DNA from: a bacterium ADurb.Bin212
GTDB taxonomy: Bacteria > Patescibacteriota > UBA1384 > XYA2-FULL-43-10
NCBI GenBank assembly: GCA_002070055.1
Contig: MWCM01000002.1
Span: 286 to 64,285, forward strand
Length of the DNA stretch: 64,000 nucleotides
Direction: 5' to 3'
The position numbers and the translations under genes are program-made. The stretch's first letter is position 1. Every line of letters begins with the position of its first letter. Positions 525 to 32,551 of the stretch are shown here, piece by piece. Under the pieces are notes generated by a model, which saw only the letters and a program-made list of their open reading frames with translations, did not search any database and was not told where the DNA came from.

Positions 525-1073
525 ATGAGAGCTTTGGCTAACGTTTTGGAGTTGCAAGAATATAAGATTGCTAAGCATAGGGAAGTTGTTGAGTTGGCAG
601 TTTACTCCGCGGTTTGTTTTTTGTTACCTTTTTTACTTGGACATCCACAGCTTGTGGTTGGTACGGTTGTTAATGCTGCCTTAATTTTGTCGGCACTTAA
701 TTTGCCAAAGCATAAGGTACTACCGGCCGTTATATTACCAAGCCTTGGTGTTATTTCTAGAGGTTTGGTTTTTGGTCCATTTACACACCTTCTAATAATA
801 ACAATGCCTTTTATTTGGTTGGGCAATTACGTACTAATCCTAACAATCAAATATCTGTATTTAGCAAAAAGGTCTAATAAATTTCTGGCTATTTGCATAG
901 CCATCATGTTAAAAGTGGCTATCATCTATTTAGCTGCGATTTTGTTAATAAATTCAGGGGTTTTACCCAAAATATTTGCCACATCAATGGGTTTGACTCA
1001 AATTTATACCGCTGTTTTGGGGGCATTACTTGCCTTATCAGTTAATAAGCTCATAAAATCAAATGCAAAATAG
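525..1073 (+). CDS. Small polytopic membrane protein (5-6 predicted TM helices) immediately upstream of the hydrogenase genes. Possibly an ECF-type S-component-like or hydrogenase-associated membrane subunit
   Basis: ATG preceded by GGAGGGG. Strongly hydrophobic 182 aa. Only 32 nt from the next gene. Confidence 0.5.
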   Translation: MRALANVLELQEYKIAKHREVVELAVYSAVCFLLPFLLGHPQLVVGTVVNAALILSALNLPKHKVLPAVILPSLGVISRGLVFGPFTHLLIITMPFIWLGNYVLILTIKYLYLAKRSNKFLAICIAIMLKVAIIYLAAILLINSGVLPKIFATSMGLTQIYTAVLGALLALSVNKLIKSNAK

Positions 1074-1105: not shown

Positions 1106-2086
1106 ATGGTTAACATCATTGAAAAAATTGAGCAAGCCGGTCTTAGGGGTCGCGGTGGCGCTGGGTTCCCAACGGCAACTAAATGGCAAGCGGTTAAGAA
1201 GCAGGAGTTACAGGGTAAAAAGATCTATATAATTGCCAATGGCTCAGAGGGAGAGCCCGGTGTTTTTAAAGATGAGTATATTTTGAAGAAATACCCAACA
1301 GAGTTTATTGAGGGCATAAAGATCGCCTTGGTTGAATTCGCCGATTCGGAAGCCGTAATTTACTTGAATCATACATATTATGATTGGTATGCCAAGAGGC
1401 TTGCATCCATCAGTAAGGGTTTCCCAATAAATTATTTTCGAAAAACTGCTAGGTATATAGCCGGCGATGAGACTGCGTTAATATCTCACATTGAGGGCAA
1501 AAGAGATGAACCTCGGATCAAGCCTCCTTATCCTGCAGAGAGCGGTTTACACGGTATGCCGACTTTGGTTAATAATATCGAAACGTATTATCGCGTATTC
1601 CAGATTGCTAAAGATCAATATCAGAATAAAACTTTTTATTCTATATCCGGATCGGGAATAAAAAAGCAGGTTTATGATTTCCCTGTGGATTATACAATAA
1701 AAGAGGTTCTCGTAAAAAGTGGCAACTGGCCAAAAGATGATTTTTTTATTCAGTATGGTGGAGGAGCTGCCGGTTCAATATATCTTCCAGAGGAGCTAGA
1801 CAATGTTCTTCCCGGGGCTGCATCTATAATAATCTTTAATAGAAACAAAACTAACCCTTATAAACTTATGCGATATTGGGCTGAGTTTTATGCAAAAGAG
1901 AACTGTGATAAATGCACCCCCTGTAGGGAGGGATCGATGCGCATTTTGGAGATGTTAAAGGAAGATAGATTTGATAGGGAGAGAGTAAAAGAACTTTTTC
2001 TAGCAATGGAGCAAAGCTCTTTTTGCCCACTGGGCCGTGGCATGAGTGCCCCATACAAATCATTAATTGAAAAGGTTATAAGATGA
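1106..2086 (+). CDS. NuoF/HndC-like NADH-binding flavoprotein subunit (51 kDa family), N-terminally truncated form
   Basis: GLRGRGGAGFPTATKW FMN/NADH signature near the N-terminus. C-terminal CxxCxxC...C N3-type 4Fe-4S motif (ENCDKCTPC...FCP). Stop overlaps the hydA start (ATGA). Confidence 0.8.
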   Translation: MVNIIEKIEQAGLRGRGGAGFPTATKWQAVKKQELQGKKIYIIANGSEGEPGVFKDEYILKKYPTEFIEGIKIALVEFADSEAVIYLNHTYYDWYAKRLASISKGFPINYFRKTARYIAGDETALISHIEGKRDEPRIKPPYPAESGLHGMPTLVNNIETYYRVFQIAKDQYQNKTFYSISGSGIKKQVYDFPVDYTIKEVLVKSGNWPKDDFFIQYGGGAAGSIYLPEELDNVLPGAASIIIFNRNKTNPYKLMRYWAEFYAKENCDKCTPCREGSMRILEMLKEDRFDRERVKELFLAMEQSSFCPLGRGMSAPYKSLIEKVIR

Positions 2087-3825
2087 GCCAAATAAGCATA
2101 TCAATTAATGGTCGAAAATATCAGGCCGATGAGGGTGAAACAGTTTTGCAGGTAGCTCAGAGAGAGGATATTTATATCCCAGCGTTGTGTTACCATTGCG
2201 ACCTACTGCCACACGAAAGTTGCCGTTTGTGTATGGTGGAGATTGAGGGCGAGGGAAAATTAAAAGCTTCCTGCACCCTAAAAGCTTTTGATGGACTTCG
2301 AGTTCTGACGGACTCAGAGTTAGTAAATAGAGTGTTAGCAGTCAATTTGGAGTTGTTGTTCGCTCAACACGAAGGAAAATGCGAAGCATGTGCCAGAAAA
2401 GACAGCTGTAAACTACGTCAGGCGGTTATCAAATTTTCCAACAAAGAGAAGTTTGTGGCTGATAAATACTCCGATCGAAAGAAGGATAAATTAAAGTATC
2501 AGTTTGGTCCAAGCATTATGTTTGATCCGGCAAAATGTATCAACTGCGAGAACTGCGCCACAATGTGTGCCAAGCAAACCAAAGGGGGTTTTATCCGCCC
2601 CAGAGAAAGTAAATATAATTTTGAGGTATCTCCTTCTTTGGCTAATGATCATGACTGCATCTACTGCGGCCAGTGTATTGTGCATTGCCCGACAGGGGCG
2701 CTTAGTGAGGTTGAGGATTATCCTGAAGTCCAAAAACTTTTAAAAGATTCTACTAAAAAGGTGGTTTTCCAATTTGCCCCAGCCATAAGATCCAGTATCG
2801 GAGAACTATTCGGTCTGCCACCAGGCGAGATAGCGACCGGAAAGATTTTTTCATCATTAAAAAGGATTGGTGCTTATAAGGTGTTTGATACCAGTTTTGG
2901 CGCAGATGTAACGATTATGGAGGAATCTGAGGAGTTAATAAACAAAATTGTGTCTGGTGAGAATGAAGTAATGTTCTCCTCGTGTTGTCCGGCTTGGGTA
3001 AAATATCTGGAATTTTATGAAAAAGGTTTTGTAAAATACCTGACATCTGTAAGGTCACCCCATATTATTTTGGGAGGGCTTATTAAAACTCACTGGGCTA
3101 AACATAATAATATTAACCCCAAGGATATAGTTGTGGTGTCTATAATGCCGTGTACTGCAAAAAAATTTGAGGCTAAAAGGCGCGAATTGAGAGTCAACGG
3201 TTTTAATCCAGTTGATATAGTTATTACCAACAGAGAGTTCGCCAAACTGTTAAAAGAGGCAAATATCAATTTGGCTGATGTGGAGCCAAGCGAAAGTAAC
3301 GATGATATTATGGGTTCATTCACCGGCGCAGGTGAGATTTTCGGAGCAAGCGGAGGAGTGCTTGAAGCGGCTATAAGGACGGCCTACTTTAAAACCACCG
3401 GCAAGAGCTTAGAACATTTTGAATTTAAAGCCATACATGAATTAAACGGTATCAAAGAGCTGGAACTAAAAGTAAACAATCAGAAATTACGTTTTGCAGC
3501 TGTGAGCGGTATCGAAAATGTTAAAATTGTTTTAGACAAGCTAAAGAGTGACCCGACTTATTACAGTTGCGTTGAAGTTATGGCTTGTCCTGGTGGTTGT
3601 GTTGCTGGAGGCGGGCAGCCACTGCCGATTGACGATGAGATTAGAAAAATGCGAAGCAAAGGTTTATATAAAGCCGATAGAGAAAACAGATACCGCGAAT
3701 CTCATGCAAACCCCGATGTTGTTGAGCTTTACAAAGGCTTCTTTGAATCGGATCGAATGCGTCACAGAATATGTCACACAAAATTTGCCGCCAAGAATAA
3801 GGGAGTTATCAAGCGAATCAAGTAG
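2083..3825 (+). CDS. hydA: [FeFe]-hydrogenase catalytic subunit, M3-type (2Fe-2S, His-ligated 4Fe-4S, 2x 4Fe-4S, H-domain)
   Basis: N-terminal CYHCDLLPHESCRLC (2Fe-2S). HEGKCEACARKDSC (H-x3-C-x2-C-x5-C). Two CxxCxxCxxxCP ferredoxin motifs. H-cluster motifs L1 SSCCPAW, L2 MPCTAKKFE and L3 EVMACPGGCVAGGGQP are all intact. Confidence 0.9.
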   Translation: MSQISISINGRKYQADEGETVLQVAQREDIYIPALCYHCDLLPHESCRLCMVEIEGEGKLKASCTLKAFDGLRVLTDSELVNRVLAVNLELLFAQHEGKCEACARKDSCKLRQAVIKFSNKEKFVADKYSDRKKDKLKYQFGPSIMFDPAKCINCENCATMCAKQTKGGFIRPRESKYNFEVSPSLANDHDCIYCGQCIVHCPTGALSEVEDYPEVQKLLKDSTKKVVFQFAPAIRSSIGELFGLPPGEIATGKIFSSLKRIGAYKVFDTSFGADVTIMEESEELINKIVSGENEVMFSSCCPAWVKYLEFYEKGFVKYLTSVRSPHIILGGLIKTHWAKHNNINPKDIVVVSIMPCTAKKFEAKRRELRVNGFNPVDIVITNREFAKLLKEANINLADVEPSESNDDIMGSFTGAGEIFGASGGVLEAAIRTAYFKTTGKSLEHFEFKAIHELNGIKELELKVNNQKLRFAAVSGIENVKIVLDKLKSDPTYYSCVEVMACPGGCVAGGGQPLPIDDEIRKMRSKGLYKADRENRYRESHANPDVVELYKGFFESDRMRHRICHTKFAAKNKGVIKRIK

Positions 3826-8462: not shown

Positions 8463-8539
8463 GGGCGCTTAGCTCAGCTGGTTAGAGCGGCTCGTTTACA
8501 CCGAGTAGGTCGGGGGTTCGAATCCCTCAGCGCCCACCA
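8463..8539 (+). tRNA. tRNA-Val (TAC)
   Basis: gggcgct/agcgccc acceptor. D-arm gctcagctggttagagc. Anticodon stem gctcg/cgagt with loop ttTACac. T-arm gggggttcgaatccctc. CCA encoded. Confidence 0.85.
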
Positions 8540-8623: not shown

Positions 8624-9277
8624 ATGAGTAAACCAAATAGAATTGTTTGGTCTTCAAAGCTGGCATATGCCACAGGGCTAATGGCCACTGATGGTAGTAT
8701 GAGTAATGACGGAAGACATATCGTATTTGTTTCAAAAGATATTGAGCAAATTGAAAACTTTATGAGTTGCTTGGGAGTACAATGTAGAATTTCATTGAAA
8801 ACAAGCGGCTTTAACCACAATAAATACCCATACATACAGTTTAGCAATTCGAAGTATTATAATTGGTTTGAGAAAATTGGGATACACCCGAATAAAACAA
8901 AAACAATTTCTGAAATAAAAATTCCTGATAGATATTTTTTTGATTTTTTGCGTGGTCACTTTGATGGAGATGGGTCATCGTACTCCTATAAAGATCGAAG
9001 ATGGAAAAATAGTTTCATGTATTACATACAATTTGTATCTGCAAGCGAGAATCATCTTTGTTGGATTAGAGACACATTGCATAAAACCTTGAAGATTAAC
9101 GGCAAAGTTAGAAAAGTGGGTAATATATATAGACTATCTTTTGCAAAGTTGAATTCTTATATCATCGTAAATAAAATGTATTCAGATAAAAATTGTATTT
9201 GTTTAAACAGAAAGAAAATAAAGATATTCAATGCGATAAATGCCGCGGTGCTGGAACTGGTAGACAGGCACGCTTGA
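8624..9277 (+). CDS. Free-standing LAGLIDADG-family homing endonuclease, double-motif monomeric type
   Basis: Motif 1 KLAYATGLMATDGSM and motif 2 FDFLRGHFDGDGSSY, about 100 aa apart in an intact 217-aa ORF. The last 36 nt of the ORF overlap the 5' half of tRNA-Leu(GAG). A TGgTATACT extended -10 sits about 12 nt upstream of the ATG, suggesting a leaderless mRNA. Confidence 0.7.
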   Translation: MSKPNRIVWSSKLAYATGLMATDGSMSNDGRHIVFVSKDIEQIENFMSCLGVQCRISLKTSGFNHNKYPYIQFSNSKYYNWFEKIGIHPNKTKTISEIKIPDRYFFDFLRGHFDGDGSSYSYKDRRWKNSFMYYIQFVSASENHLCWIRDTLHKTLKINGKVRKVGNIYRLSFAKLNSYIIVNKMYSDKNCICLNRKKIKIFNAINAAVLELVDRHA

Positions 9278-9327
9278 GGTGCGTGTGTCCAAAAGACGTG
9301 GAGGTTCAAGTCCTCTCCGCGGCACCA
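9242..9327 (+). tRNA. tRNA-Leu (GAG), type II
   Basis: Same acceptor and T-arm as the 7001 copy. Anticodon stem cacgc/gcgtg with loop ttGAGgt. Variable arm tgtccaaaagacg. CCA encoded. Confidence 0.85.
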
Positions 9328-30201: not shown

Positions 30202-30624
30202 ATGAAAGTTTCCATCAAAACCAAAGGGGTAGTTTTAACTTCAAAGCAGAAGTCACATATAGAGAAACAGGTGTTAAGAGTAAAGAGATTTATTCGCGAT
30301 GTGGATCCGGTAGTAGTGGAGGTTGGCTTTACCGATTTGAGTGGTCCGAATAAGGGCGGAGTTGATCAGGCTGTAAGTATCAATACAACCCTGCCTAAGG
30401 AAGCGATCTTTGTTGAGGAAACTGATGATAGAGCCCTAAGAGCGTTTCAATTTGCTTTTAAAACATTTGAAAGAAGAATCAGACGCTATGCAGACAAAAA
30501 TATTGACAATAAAAGAAGGCAGCAGAGCAAATTTAAATCAGTGGTAAATGTGGTAGGTGGAGCGGGTAGAATAGTTGGGGGCACCATAAATAAAATTGTT
30601 CCTCGTAAAAAAAGCGGCAGTTAA
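30202..30624 (+). CDS. hpf: Ribosome hibernation-promoting factor / RaiA (S30EA family)
   Basis: MKVSIKTKGVVLTSKQKSHIEKQVLRVKRFI matches the HPF N-terminal beta-alpha pattern. GGAGGAAAAATG RBS. The ORF-track TTG at 30157 has no spacer to its SD. Confidence 0.7.
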   Translation: MKVSIKTKGVVLTSKQKSHIEKQVLRVKRFIRDVDPVVVEVGFTDLSGPNKGGVDQAVSINTTLPKEAIFVEETDDRALRAFQFAFKTFERRIRRYADKNIDNKRRQQSKFKSVVNVVGGAGRIVGGTINKIVPRKKSGS

Positions 30625-30632
30625 TATATCTA

Positions 30633-31514
30633 GTGAATATCGGGCAGGGAGGCGATTTGGAAAAAATAATTGTTGATCGCATAAAATCAAATAAATCGAT
30701 TGCACTTTTGGCTCCCTCTTATGTTATTGATTTTAAATACCCAAACATAATTGGCATGCTCAAAGAGTTGGGTTTTGATAAGGTTACCGAGCTTACCTTT
30801 GGTGCTAGAATGGTTAATTGGTGGTATGTTGACTATATAAAAAAACATCCCGAGCAGAGGTATTTTATTGCCTCCCCTTGCCCTACTTTAGTCAGTTATA
30901 TAAGGAGTAAATACCCCGATTTAGTGCAGTATTTGATGCCTTATGCTTCTCCAATGTTAGCTCAGGCTCGAATTATCAGAAAGCATTATCCTGACCATTT
31001 AAATATCTTTATCTCCCCTTGTATTGCCAAACAATCAATAGAGGCGCCTTTACACCCAAAAGATGTTGACGGTGTCATAACATACAAAAGTCTAAAAGAG
31101 GAGTTTGATAACGATGGAATATTTAGCGACAATTTTGATCGCGAGTATCAGTTCGACTCTTTGATTCAGGAGTATACCAAAATTTACCCTGTTTCCGGTG
31201 GTCTGGGCAACACTTCTCATATCCATAGATATTTTAAAAACGAAGAGATCTTTGTTGATGACACAATCCCTAATATCGAACCGGTTTTACAGGCGATGCG
31301 TAACGGTAGTACGCAGTATAGATTTTTAGACATCCTTAACTGCAAAGGTGGCTGTATCGGCGGACCGGCGATAGTAAATCAGAATATGACTACAGAGGAA
31401 AGAAAATTGAAAGTTGAGAGCTATATAAAAGATTCCAGTAAGCGCAACCTAGGTGCTAAAAAAGGCCGTCTTGAATATGCGGAAGGGATTGGCCTCGAAG
31501 TTGATTTTAATTAG
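30633..31514 (+). CDS. Stand-alone divergent [FeFe]-hydrogenase H-domain homolog, 293 aa, no ferredoxin-like domains. L1 ASPCP replaces TSCCP, L2 SPCIAKQSIE, L3 NCKGGCIGGPA
   Basis: Block-by-block correspondence with HydA H-domain segments: LGFDKVTELTFGARMV, YFIASPCPTLVSY, NIFISPCIAKQSIE, DVDGVITYKSLKEEF, FLDILNCKGGCIGGPA. The start is 8 nt after the hpf stop. Confidence 0.65.
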   Translation: MNIGQGGDLEKIIVDRIKSNKSIALLAPSYVIDFKYPNIIGMLKELGFDKVTELTFGARMVNWWYVDYIKKHPEQRYFIASPCPTLVSYIRSKYPDLVQYLMPYASPMLAQARIIRKHYPDHLNIFISPCIAKQSIEAPLHPKDVDGVITYKSLKEEFDNDGIFSDNFDREYQFDSLIQEYTKIYPVSGGLGNTSHIHRYFKNEEIFVDDTIPNIEPVLQAMRNGSTQYRFLDILNCKGGCIGGPAIVNQNMTTEERKLKVESYIKDSSKRNLGAKKGRLEYAEGIGLEVDFN

Positions 31515-31523
31515 GATGTTATA

Positions 31524-31847
31524 ATGGGCGATAAAGAATTAGGCCAAATATACGAAATAGCCTTGGCCCATAATATAAAGTATCCCGACAACAACTCGCC
31601 TTATCATATTATGACGAGAATTGCAGAAGAGGTCGGGGAGTTGGCTGAGCAGGTTAACCATTTTGAAGGATCAGGCATAAAACGACAGAAACACGGTGAG
31701 CCTAAAAAATCTCATTTGGCCGAAGAGATGTGGCATGTTATAAAGTGTATTTACCAGCTTTGTGAATACTACGGAGTTAAAAAAGAGATGTTGAATTCGA
31801 TCCATGAAAAAATATCAGAGTATAAAAAACAGGGTCTAATAAAATAA
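31524..31847 (+). CDS. MazG-like NTP pyrophosphohydrolase (small all-alpha MazG domain)
   Basis: RIAEEVGELAEQV EExxE metal-binding motif, 107 aa. Confidence 0.6.
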   Translation: MGDKELGQIYEIALAHNIKYPDNNSPYHIMTRIAEEVGELAEQVNHFEGSGIKRQKHGEPKKSHLAEEMWHVIKCIYQLCEYYGVKKEMLNSIHEKISEYKKQGLIK

Positions 31848-32551
31848 TGTATAAAATATATCTTGGCCTAACAACAACTAACGGTTCTGATTGGCGTGGC
31901 AAAACTGAAGAGGTAAATGAGTTTGGTCTCGAAGAAATCGCGCTTTTCCCTACTGTTTTAGAAGAGAAGGAAAGGCAAGAGCTGTATAAACTAATAGAGA
32001 AGTCATGCTTAAAAAGCATTCCTTTTGTGCATTTAAGACACGACATGACAGAAGCTGAAATGGATTATTTAGTCGAAAAGTGGCATACGAAGGTTTTTAA
32101 TACACACCCGAGGCCAGACTCCATACAGTTCTTACTTGATAACCCTAAATTTATTGATATGATTGCTATCGAGAATGTCTGCCATATAGAAAAATATTTT
32201 TTGAAGGCCTTATCGTTGGCGCCAAGAATCTGTTTGGATCTGGCTCACTATCAAGATAAACATGTAATTCAGAAAAGACCGGAGTATAAAGTTGTAGAGA
32301 AGGCCTTAAGGCACTATCTTGTAACATGTAACCACATTTCTGCAGTAAAAAGTGAGCCATTTTGGGAGGAGAATACCAGCAAAGAAGGTGGGGATTGGTT
32401 GTATGAATGCCATATGGCAACATCGTTATCTGATTTCGACTATGTCAAAAACTACAAGTCTTATCTATCAAACTATTGCGCAATTGAGATTAGTAACACT
32501 CTTAAAGAACAGATAAAGATAAAAGAGCACATAGAGCGCATTCTTGCTTAA
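31847..32551 (+). CDS. Hypothetical protein, possibly a TIM-barrel (xylose isomerase-like) fold. Start overlaps the MazG stop
   Basis: 234-aa ORF. Only weak DLAH/IENVCH-type motifs seen. Confidence 0.4.
   Translation: MYKIYLGLTTTNGSDWRGKTEEVNEFGLEEIALFPTVLEEKERQELYKLIEKSCLKSIPFVHLRHDMTEAEMDYLVEKWHTKVFNTHPRPDSIQFLLDNPKFIDMIAIENVCHIEKYFLKALSLAPRICLDLAHYQDKHVIQKRPEYKVVEKALRHYLVTCNHISAVKSEPFWEENTSKEGGDWLYECHMATSLSDFDYVKNYKSYLSNYCAIEISNTLKEQIKIKEHIERILA

Follow-up and report, generated by a model that had tools for sequence, protein, structure and literature searches.

We analysed a 64,000-nt stretch of contig MWCM01000002.1 from bacterium ADurb.Bin212 (hereafter the window), which carries a gene for a small protein that consists of the H-domain of [FeFe] hydrogenases and nothing else. 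The window is a typical housekeeping region of the candidate phyla radiation (CPR, or Patescibacteria), in which the genes follow the order mreBCD-pbp2, greA, lysS, serS, hpf, minimal hydrogenase, two small open reading frames (ORFs), secA, aldose epimerase, iPGM and ftsEX. The ORF of the minimal hydrogenase was confirmed at positions 30633..31514 of the forward strand. A preliminary description of this locus had taken the GTG codon at 30633 as the start and, noting that it lacks a Shine-Dalgarno sequence, had proposed translational coupling to hpf. We found that the true start is probably the in-frame TTG at 30657, to judge from the Shine-Dalgarno-like sequence in front of it and from the N-termini of homologs, which carry a shared M-[DE]-x-[LI]-I-x-x-R-I-K pattern that lines up with this codon. 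The 285-aa product predicted from the TTG is also the same as a public sequence labelled bacterium ADurb.Bin212 and as the gene call in NCBI assembly GCA_022705445.1. Since the TTG start has its own Shine-Dalgarno sequence, with a spacer of 32 nt between the end of hpf and the start codon, coupling to hpf is unnecessary, and the gene lies next to hpf only in its three closest relatives; we have accordingly discarded both the GTG start and the coupling. The coordinates of these and other features are collected in the table.

Features of the window that bear on the minimal hydrogenase and its linked genes. Residue numbers of the minimal protein refer to the 285-aa form.
Feature	Position	Strand	Description and basis
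Minimal (group-E-type) [FeFe] hydrogenase, coding sequence	30657..31514	+	285 aa from TTG, stop codon counted in the span; ORF, PF02906, public gene calls, AlphaFold2 (AF2) model and Foldseek
Shine-Dalgarno-like AGGGAGG	30646..30652	+	4 nt before the TTG start; read directly in the sequence
In-frame extension from GTG, probably untranslated	30633..30656	+	No Shine-Dalgarno sequence; 8 residues without counterpart in homologs or public gene calls
L1 motif A72-S-P74-C75-P76, in place of TSCCP	30870..30884	+	P74 at the relay Cys (CpI C299); C75 a [4Fe-4S]H ligand (CpI C300)
L2 motif S120-P-C122-I-A-K125-Q-S-I-E129, in place of MPCxxKxxE	31014..31043	+	Alignments; ligands called by CpI equivalence
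L3 motif N228-C229-K-G-G-C233-I-G-G-P237 (then A), compared with ACxGGCxxGGGQP	31338..31367	+	Alignments
hpf (ribosome hibernation factor), upstream neighbour	30202..30624	+	140 aa; PF02482, TIGR00741, gene call
hydB with canonical group A hydA (the second [FeFe] hydrogenase, of prototypical type)	1106..3825	+	Motifs, TIGR02512, PDB matches
nuoF-like hydB, short	1106-2086	+	326 aa; PF01512 and PF10589; 4-nt overlap with hydA
Group A hydA	2083-3825	+	580 aa; SSCCP / MPCTAKKFE / MACPGGCVAGGGQP; TIGR02512 above cutoff
Polytopic membrane protein (orf182) with the fold of an energy-coupling factor (ECF) S-component	525..1073	+	182 aa; directly upstream of group A hydBA, 29.6 kb from the minimal gene

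The minimal protein matched the Pfam family PF02906 (Fe_hyd_lg_C) along the whole profile (positions 5 to 245 of 245), with E 4.1e-36 and 125 bits where the cutoff is 22, well outside what chance would give, and no second domain was detected in scans against the Pfam and NCBIfam profiles. It contains four cysteines in all, C75, C122, C229 and C233, which align to CpI C300, C355, C499 and C503, respectively, in alignments to solved hydrogenases and to the group A HydA encoded elsewhere in the window; CpI numbering was anchored through the latter, whose SSCCP was aligned to CpI T297-S298-C299-C300-P301. What the preliminary description had said of the motifs is borne out by these alignments: the three [4Fe-4S]H-ligating cysteines (C75, C122 and C229), the bridging cysteine (C233) and the L2 lysine (K125, at CpI K358) are retained, the relay cysteine is replaced by a proline (P74), and L3 reads NCKGGCIGGPA, so that it ends in GGPA at the site of GGGQP. 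The one-residue insertion noted in L2 is likewise present as an extra residue between K125 and E129, the equivalent of CpI E361, and S120 occupies the M353 position. With a single PF02906 domain and four cysteines only, the protein is also, as had been stated, free of an F-cluster, a PAS domain or other partner domains. It is smaller than the algal M1 enzymes, as had been pointed out too, but this size is no longer unique, the group E hydrogenases discussed below averaging 286 aa (PMC11216029). In an AF2 model built on 37 family members (pLDDT 88.4, pTM 0.86) the protein adopts the H-domain fold, and all 50 of the best matches listed by Foldseek against the PDB are [FeFe] hydrogenases, with query-normalised TM-scores of 0.70-0.79.

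A search of 5.8 billion proteins returned 933 matches at E <= 1e-5, the best 120 of which were used for conservation counts. These 120 homologs are single-domain proteins of 267-327 aa, mostly 283-287 aa, and the named ones among them are labelled Patescibacteria, Parcubacteria, Moranbacteria, Staskawiczbacteria and Buchananbacteria. The four cysteines are invariant (120/120), the proline of SPCP is present in 119/120, and A19-P20, S98-P99, K125, E129, S180-G-G-L183 and the G-G-C-I-G-G-P of L3 are invariant or nearly so. Among the conserved second-shell residues, A19-P20-S21, S98-P99, K125 and S180-G-G-L183 correspond to the elements that touch the 2Fe subcluster and its CN ligands in CpI and CrHydA1.

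To survey the family at the level of loci we took one genome per GTDB species, which gave 80 loci. Most are from CPR bacteria (Staskawicz-, Berkel-, Dojka-, Moranii- and Buchananbacteria, WS6 and Microgenomates), and ten are from DPANN archaea. The window protein shares 47-68% identity with members of its own CPR subclade and 39-46% with a Dojkabacteria-type CPR subclade. At the relay position (CpI C299) a proline was found in all 31 members of the window's subclade and in all 37 more distant CPR members; DPANN proteins have P6/V3/A1 (n = 10) and sensory relatives A30/P27/T13/S10/C9. With this proline in every one of the 68 CPR members tallied and common among the sensory relatives, SPCP is, on the alignments, a lineage trait of this superclade and not a peculiarity of this gene. 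The L2 insertion, by the same alignments, marks the window's own CPR subclade only (31/31, against 2/37 distant CPR, 0/10 DPANN and 9/98 sensory sequences), and every short member has a lysine at the CpI K358 position. One homolog with 54% identity (L010) comes from a metagenome-assembled genome (MAG) labelled 'uncultured Gammaproteobacteria', and many others from binchicken MAGs labelled 'uncultured Candidatus Saccharibacteria'; these look like generic or wrong taxonomy and not a genuinely wider host range.

A protein library clustered at 50% identity yielded 3665 representatives at E <= 1e-3, in which the top tier consisted of short proteins of 256-316 aa and the next tier of proteins of 480-930 aa with sensory-type architecture, combining Fer4, the H-domain and a PF04060 Fe-S motif with a His-kinase, MCP, GGDEF, sigma54 activator or PAS module. 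One representative of 4122 aa (P0123) gave 14 separate matches to the minimal-hydrogenase profile (338 bits); it is perhaps a concatenated or wrongly predicted gene model, or else a giant protein with multiple H-domains. The minimal protein shares 25-34% identity with the sensory proteins and 27% with the group A HydA of the window. It resembles group C/D sensory enzymes (e.g. Thermotoga maritima HydS, TmHydS) in the replaced relay cysteine, in a GCIxGP-type L3 and in having small residues or Leu in place of Met353 and Met497. It differs from them in lacking the N-terminal Fer4, the C-terminal PF04060 and the signalling output domains (no Fer4, PAS, HisKA, MCP, GGDEF or sigma54 domain was found in the Pfam scan), and its L3 has the C-x-G-G-C spacing seen in catalytic enzymes, where C-x-G-C is found in many of the sensory relatives. 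With CpI and the group A M1 enzyme of Chlamydomonas reinhardtii (HydA1) it shares the H-domain fold, the four H-cluster cysteines and the K358-equivalent lysine, and by analogy with HydA1 ferredoxin may have direct access to an exposed cubane. In contrast to group A enzymes it has no TSCCP and no GGGQP, the positions of the Glu/Ser/Glu/Arg proton pathway are not conserved, and relative to the HydA of the window about 55 loop residues are missing from the H-domain and the small-subunit-like C-terminus is shortened. Neither of the relevant NCBIfam profiles claims the protein: TIGR02512 (group A) gave 65.6 bits against a cutoff of 405.95, and TIGR04105 (group B1) matched at profile positions 215-461 only, with 131.5 bits against a cutoff of 450. 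Nar1-type proteins have an extra N-terminal Cys cluster and bind no 2Fe subcluster. The minimal protein is like Nar1/NARFL in having an H-domain-derived fold without the hydrogenase proton-relay residues, but it has the four H-cluster cysteines only and keeps the Lys358 equivalent and the 2Fe-contact residues. Of the resemblance to sensory and Nar1-like relatives proposed in the preliminary description, the sensory half thus stands, the nearest longer relatives being of sensory type, and the Nar1 half does not.

The closest described proteins are found in archaea. The ten DPANN loci (Nanoarchaeia/Nanoarchaeota, Pacearchaeota and Woesearchaeota) encode ORFs of 275-303 aa that are collinear with the window protein over the full length at about 37-45% identity and carry SPCP, TPCP, TACP or SVCP in L1 and GGCIGGP in L3; in one case the flanking genes code for TFIIB, ribosomal protein S8e and LSM, so that this genome is indeed archaeal. 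When the CPR and DPANN alignments were compared with hhalign, the probability was 100 (E 2e-90, 44% identity over 267 collinear columns). The group E "ultraminimal" [FeFe] hydrogenases were described from archaea by Greening et al. (Cell 2024; PMC11216029); they are monomeric, consist of the H-domain only with condensed loops (mean 286 residues), retain all H-cluster cysteines and differ in their proton-transfer residues. Group E is encoded by DPANN phyla including Nanoarchaeota and is sister to sensory group C; the paper describes it from archaea only and nowhere mentions Patescibacteria. Our literature search likewise returned no report of the minimal family in CPR bacteria, and no 'Forterrea' label was present among the 120 best matches to the DPANN profile. 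The enzyme of Ca. Forterrea multitransposorum (Fm) contained 4.2 Fe per protein, bound one [4Fe-4S] cluster and formed an H-cluster with [2Fe]adt as seen by Fourier-transform infrared spectroscopy; its catalysis is bidirectional and biased towards H+ reduction, unlike that of its closest characterised homolog, TmHydS (PMC11216029).

The window protein shares with group E the H-domain-only architecture of about 285 aa, the four cysteines, the absence of accessory clusters, loops condensed relative to group A, a replaced relay cysteine, a GGCIGGP-type L3 and sensory group C proteins as the nearest longer relatives (PMC11216029). It differs in its host, which belongs to the Patescibacteria and not to the archaea, in the relay-site proline of all tallied CPR members, where DPANN members vary between P, V and A, and, for the window's subclade, in the L2 insertion and in Ser at the M353 position as against Gly/Ser. 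The window is bacterial by its SecA, MreB/C, PBP2, FtsEX and GreA, and so falls outside group E as originally circumscribed by an archaeal host; this DPANN-host criterion, however, describes a host range and is not mechanistic. A neighbour-joining tree (100 bootstrap replicates) of short CPR and DPANN, sensory and group A sequences placed the short CPR and DPANN proteins apart from the sensory and group A ones in 66/100 replicates and recovered two CPR clades, the well-supported one at 96-99. The protein is probably the bacterial counterpart of group E, a real but already recognised kind of enzyme. The preliminary description had implied a novel form, and had named placement in a described subgroup with the same motif variants as evidence to the contrary; such a placement is largely what we found, the size and motif variants being those of the approximately 280-aa DPANN proteins that fit group E.

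Gene neighbourhoods of the relatives point to a metabolic setting. In 27 loci of the Dojkabacteria-type CPR clade an ADP-forming acetyl-CoA synthetase and the beta and alpha subunits of a 2-oxoacid:ferredoxin oxidoreductase (OFOR) are encoded convergently downstream of the minimal hydrogenase, at 0.03-6.5 kb and up to 9.5 kb in L073, with gene identities confirmed by Pfam; loci with this module include L034, L037-L040, L043-L047, L049-L052, L057-L059, L062, L067 and L073. In two DPANN loci (L068 and L071) OFORa, OFORb and the hydrogenase gene are co-directional, at most 65 nt apart, and appear to form an operon. This neighbourhood fits fermentative H2 release. The arrangement of the window, hpf to secA, recurs in only the three closest of the 80 loci (L001-L003), and a functional tie of the minimal hydrogenase to hpf, to a mazG-like gene or to secA was discarded because the synteny is confined to these. 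The first of the two small ORFs downstream (31524-31847, +; 107 aa) begins 9 nt past the hydrogenase and has a weak MazG-like match (E 0.005, below cutoff); the second (31847-32551, +; 234 aa) overlaps it by 1 nt and has no family, and each recurs in only one or two of the closest loci. A simple CxxCxxCxxxCP screen, which is a weak test, found no small ferredoxin ORF near the minimal gene.

The window also encodes a prototypical [FeFe] hydrogenase of its own (see table). Its HydA combines Fer2_4, a NuoG-type 4Fe4S domain, two Fer4 domains, the H-domain and the small-subunit domain, and has electron-bifurcating HydA subunits (7q4v and 8a6t) as best PDB matches; no NuoE-like hydC was seen adjoining hydB-hydA.

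We propose, at a probability of about 70%, that the minimal protein is an [FeFe] hydrogenase of the ultraminimal, group E type, made up of the H-domain alone, reduced by ferredoxin and releasing H2, with a non-canonical proton route. The proposal builds on family membership, fold, ligand and second-shell conservation and the gene context of relatives as observed here, and on H-cluster binding and bidirectional catalysis as demonstrated for Fm, from which we infer by analogy that the bacterial protein would do the same. C75, C122 and C229 would ligate the [4Fe-4S]H cubane together with C233, which would also bridge to the [2Fe] subcluster, itself held by A19-P20-S21, S98-P99, K125 and S180-G-G-L183. 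Because accessory clusters are absent, electrons would have to enter the cubane directly from a soluble carrier of low potential, for which ferredoxin reduced by OFOR is the most likely candidate, and would be disposed of as H2 in fermentation. In this module, a classic one, oxidation of 2-oxoacids to acyl-CoA would reduce ferredoxin, conversion of acyl-CoA to the acid would yield ATP and the hydrogenase would re-oxidise the ferredoxin. The Cys-Glu-Ser-Glu-Arg pathway of group A is presumably unusable, because the relay cysteine is a proline and the Glu, Ser and Arg positions are not conserved, and protons would have to find another way to the exposed H-cluster, probably one mediated by solvent or backbone.

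Several points weigh against this proposal. Biochemistry is limited to the archaeal Fm, with the bacterial members known from sequence, and the in vitro activity of Fm was obtained with enzyme matured artificially by a synthetic cofactor (PMC11216029). The assignment to group E rests on size, host phylum, architecture and phylogenetic neighbourhood and not on direct alignment to Fm or Na, and in our tree the position of the DPANN proteins relative to the two CPR clades has a bootstrap value of 16 or less. The OFOR and acetyl-CoA synthetase synteny is absent from the window's own subclade, where the gene lies among housekeeping genes, and the second, canonical hydrogenase makes a purely catalytic role partly redundant. 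A rigid proline at the relay site and the loss of the group A proton pathway are also seen in low-turnover sensory enzymes. No hydE/F/G-like maturase gene was found in the 64-kb window or within 10 kb of the 80 homologous loci, screened for the radical SAM motif CxxxCxxC (hydE/G) and for a P-loop with CxH...HCxxC (hydF); the loci contained only four unrelated singleton radical-SAM-like ORFs, and 64 kb without maturases says little about the complete genome.

The sensory likeness raises the question of whether the protein is an H2 or redox sensor or regulator, that is, a stripped-down group C/D relative that binds an H-cluster, has slow turnover and signals by protein-protein contacts in place of a fused output domain. 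All of its closest longer relatives have sensory architecture, most of them share the loss of the relay cysteine and the group A proton pathway is absent; moreover, the genome already holds a canonical catalytic HydA, and in the window's subclade the gene lies among housekeeping genes, here beside hpf. We nonetheless consider a sensory role unlikely, as the protein has neither an output nor an interaction domain, the window's subclade shows no conserved partner gene, adjacency to hpf is seen in just 3/80 loci, and relatives are syntenic with OFOR and acetyl-CoA synthetase, a metabolic and not a regulatory setting. The catalytic bias of Fm, unlike the behaviour of TmHydS, argues in the same direction (PMC11216029).

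A further reading, to which we give a lower weight, is that the protein is no hydrogenase in vivo but a [4Fe-4S]-only Fe-S or electron-transfer protein, comparable to Nar1/NARFL or to apo-HydA, in an organism unable to make the 2Fe subcluster. The lack of hydE/F/G-like genes in the window and near the 80 loci would fit this, as would the report that maturases are missing from most archaeal genomes with [FeFe] hydrogenases, including the closed Fm genome (PMC11216029). Against it, the protein has four cysteines only and no second, Nar1-type Cys cluster, and hundreds of sequences are invariant in the bridging cysteine, the K358-position lysine and the A-P-S, S-P and S-G-G-L elements. To our knowledge these residues serve solely to keep the 2Fe subcluster, with its CN ligands, in place. 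The genome must, furthermore, be able to make H-clusters, given that it encodes an intact group A HydA with a full TSCCP-type site that would be useless without an H-cluster supply. That the gene is instead a leftover of a longer group B/C hydrogenase, truncated or decayed to a pseudogene, was suggested by its best NCBIfam match, which covers the C-terminal half of group B1 (TIGR04105). This is scarcely credible, and conservation effectively refutes it: at 38-69% identity, CPR and DPANN sequences in their hundreds keep intact ORFs and a length of about 283-287 aa. In addition, the AF2 model is compact and confident, and the gene has its own Shine-Dalgarno sequence and start codon. We retain the catalytic, group E-type enzyme as the preferred reading.

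The 182-aa membrane protein encoded directly upstream of hydBA is linked to minimal hydrogenases elsewhere. Its AF2 model (pLDDT 91.2) is a six-helix bundle with the six-helix S-component fold; apart from noise there was no Pfam match at E up to 10, and there was no PDB sequence match. It resembles ECF S-components (RibU, ThiT, BioY, FolT and PanT) and the solitary BtuM and CbiM at 7-18% identity, with no match to a Pfam S-component family, and differs from S-components in that the AxxxA EcfT-docking motif is not conserved (7/39 family members) and in its linkage to [FeFe] hydrogenases, which is unique to this gene. Conserved Cys and His residues are lacking across the family except for a frequent GHPQ loop; the intramembrane residues Q42, N50, N101, K130 and Q159 are invariant. 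Homologs lie directly beside the minimal hydrogenase in 30/80 loci, two of them DPANN, mostly in divergent orientation and 40-145 bp away, and never elsewhere within +/-10 kb. In a reverse look-up from eight homologs on long contigs an H-domain gene was adjacent in seven, namely five short stand-alone genes (260-301 aa) and two hydB-hydA-type clusters; in one of the seven, DtxR-FeoA-FeoB comes next. Of ABC ATPases, the window showed only FtsE, which is paired with FtsX. At one locus (L089, 3001-6525) an S-component-like gene, a 260-aa minimal hydrogenase, a DtxR-type Fe-dependent repressor, FeoA and a FeoB-like ORF follow one another in this order, so that genes for iron uptake directly adjoin the pair. 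An apparent repeat upstream of orf182, seen by eye, was not confirmed by a repeat search.

The membrane protein is probably the product of the 'hyd6TM' gene, which is named in figure legends only and is associated there with archaeal group A enzymes (PMC11216029). Its link to minimal hydrogenases and its S-component fold appear to be new observations. The adjacency in 30/80 and 7/8 cases, a fold known from proteins that capture vitamins, cofactors and metals, the absence of linked maturases and the maturase-free hosts in the literature together leave room for a speculative and rather improbable role, in which the protein would capture or import a building block of the H-cluster and so let CPR and DPANN organisms, with their reduced genomes, mature both ultraminimal and canonical [FeFe] hydrogenases without HydE/F/G. 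Candidate cargoes, scavenged from a host or a neighbour, would be the [2Fe] subcluster in pre-formed state, an Fe(CO)x(CN) synthon of the HydG/HydE type, or dedicated iron. Plainer alternatives are membrane anchoring, or transport of an unrelated kind with the gene kept close for regulation. A supply of riboflavin for the FMN subunit HydB was also considered and discarded, as it leaves the adjacency to flavin-free minimal hydrogenases unexplained.

Elsewhere in the window, a 217-aa ORF with a LAGLIDADG_3 homing-endonuclease-like match (8624-9277, +) lies inside a tRNA gene cluster, between tRNA-Val (8463-8539) and tRNA-Leu (9242-9327), and its 3' end overlaps the tRNA-Leu call.

Group E was introduced in 2024 as a feature of DPANN archaea and as the smallest known H2 catalysts (PMC11216029). 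The window protein and its hundreds of homologs indicate that this type of enzyme, of about 285 aa, is widespread in Patescibacteria, and add to its hosts a second great radiation of ultrasmall episymbionts; the distribution across CPR and DPANN points to gene exchange or shared ancestry. With an invariant relay-site proline and a subclade-specific L2 insertion, the family provides a large natural sequence series for the study of H-cluster function where the canonical proton relay is missing. Shared neighbourhoods with OFOR and acetyl-CoA synthetase genes suggest a concrete physiological model, in which H2 would be released in a ferredoxin-dependent manner during fermentation of 2-oxoacids. 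The S-component-like membrane protein, more novel than the hydrogenase itself, may offer a testable lead on how H-clusters are assembled in organisms that lack the maturases.

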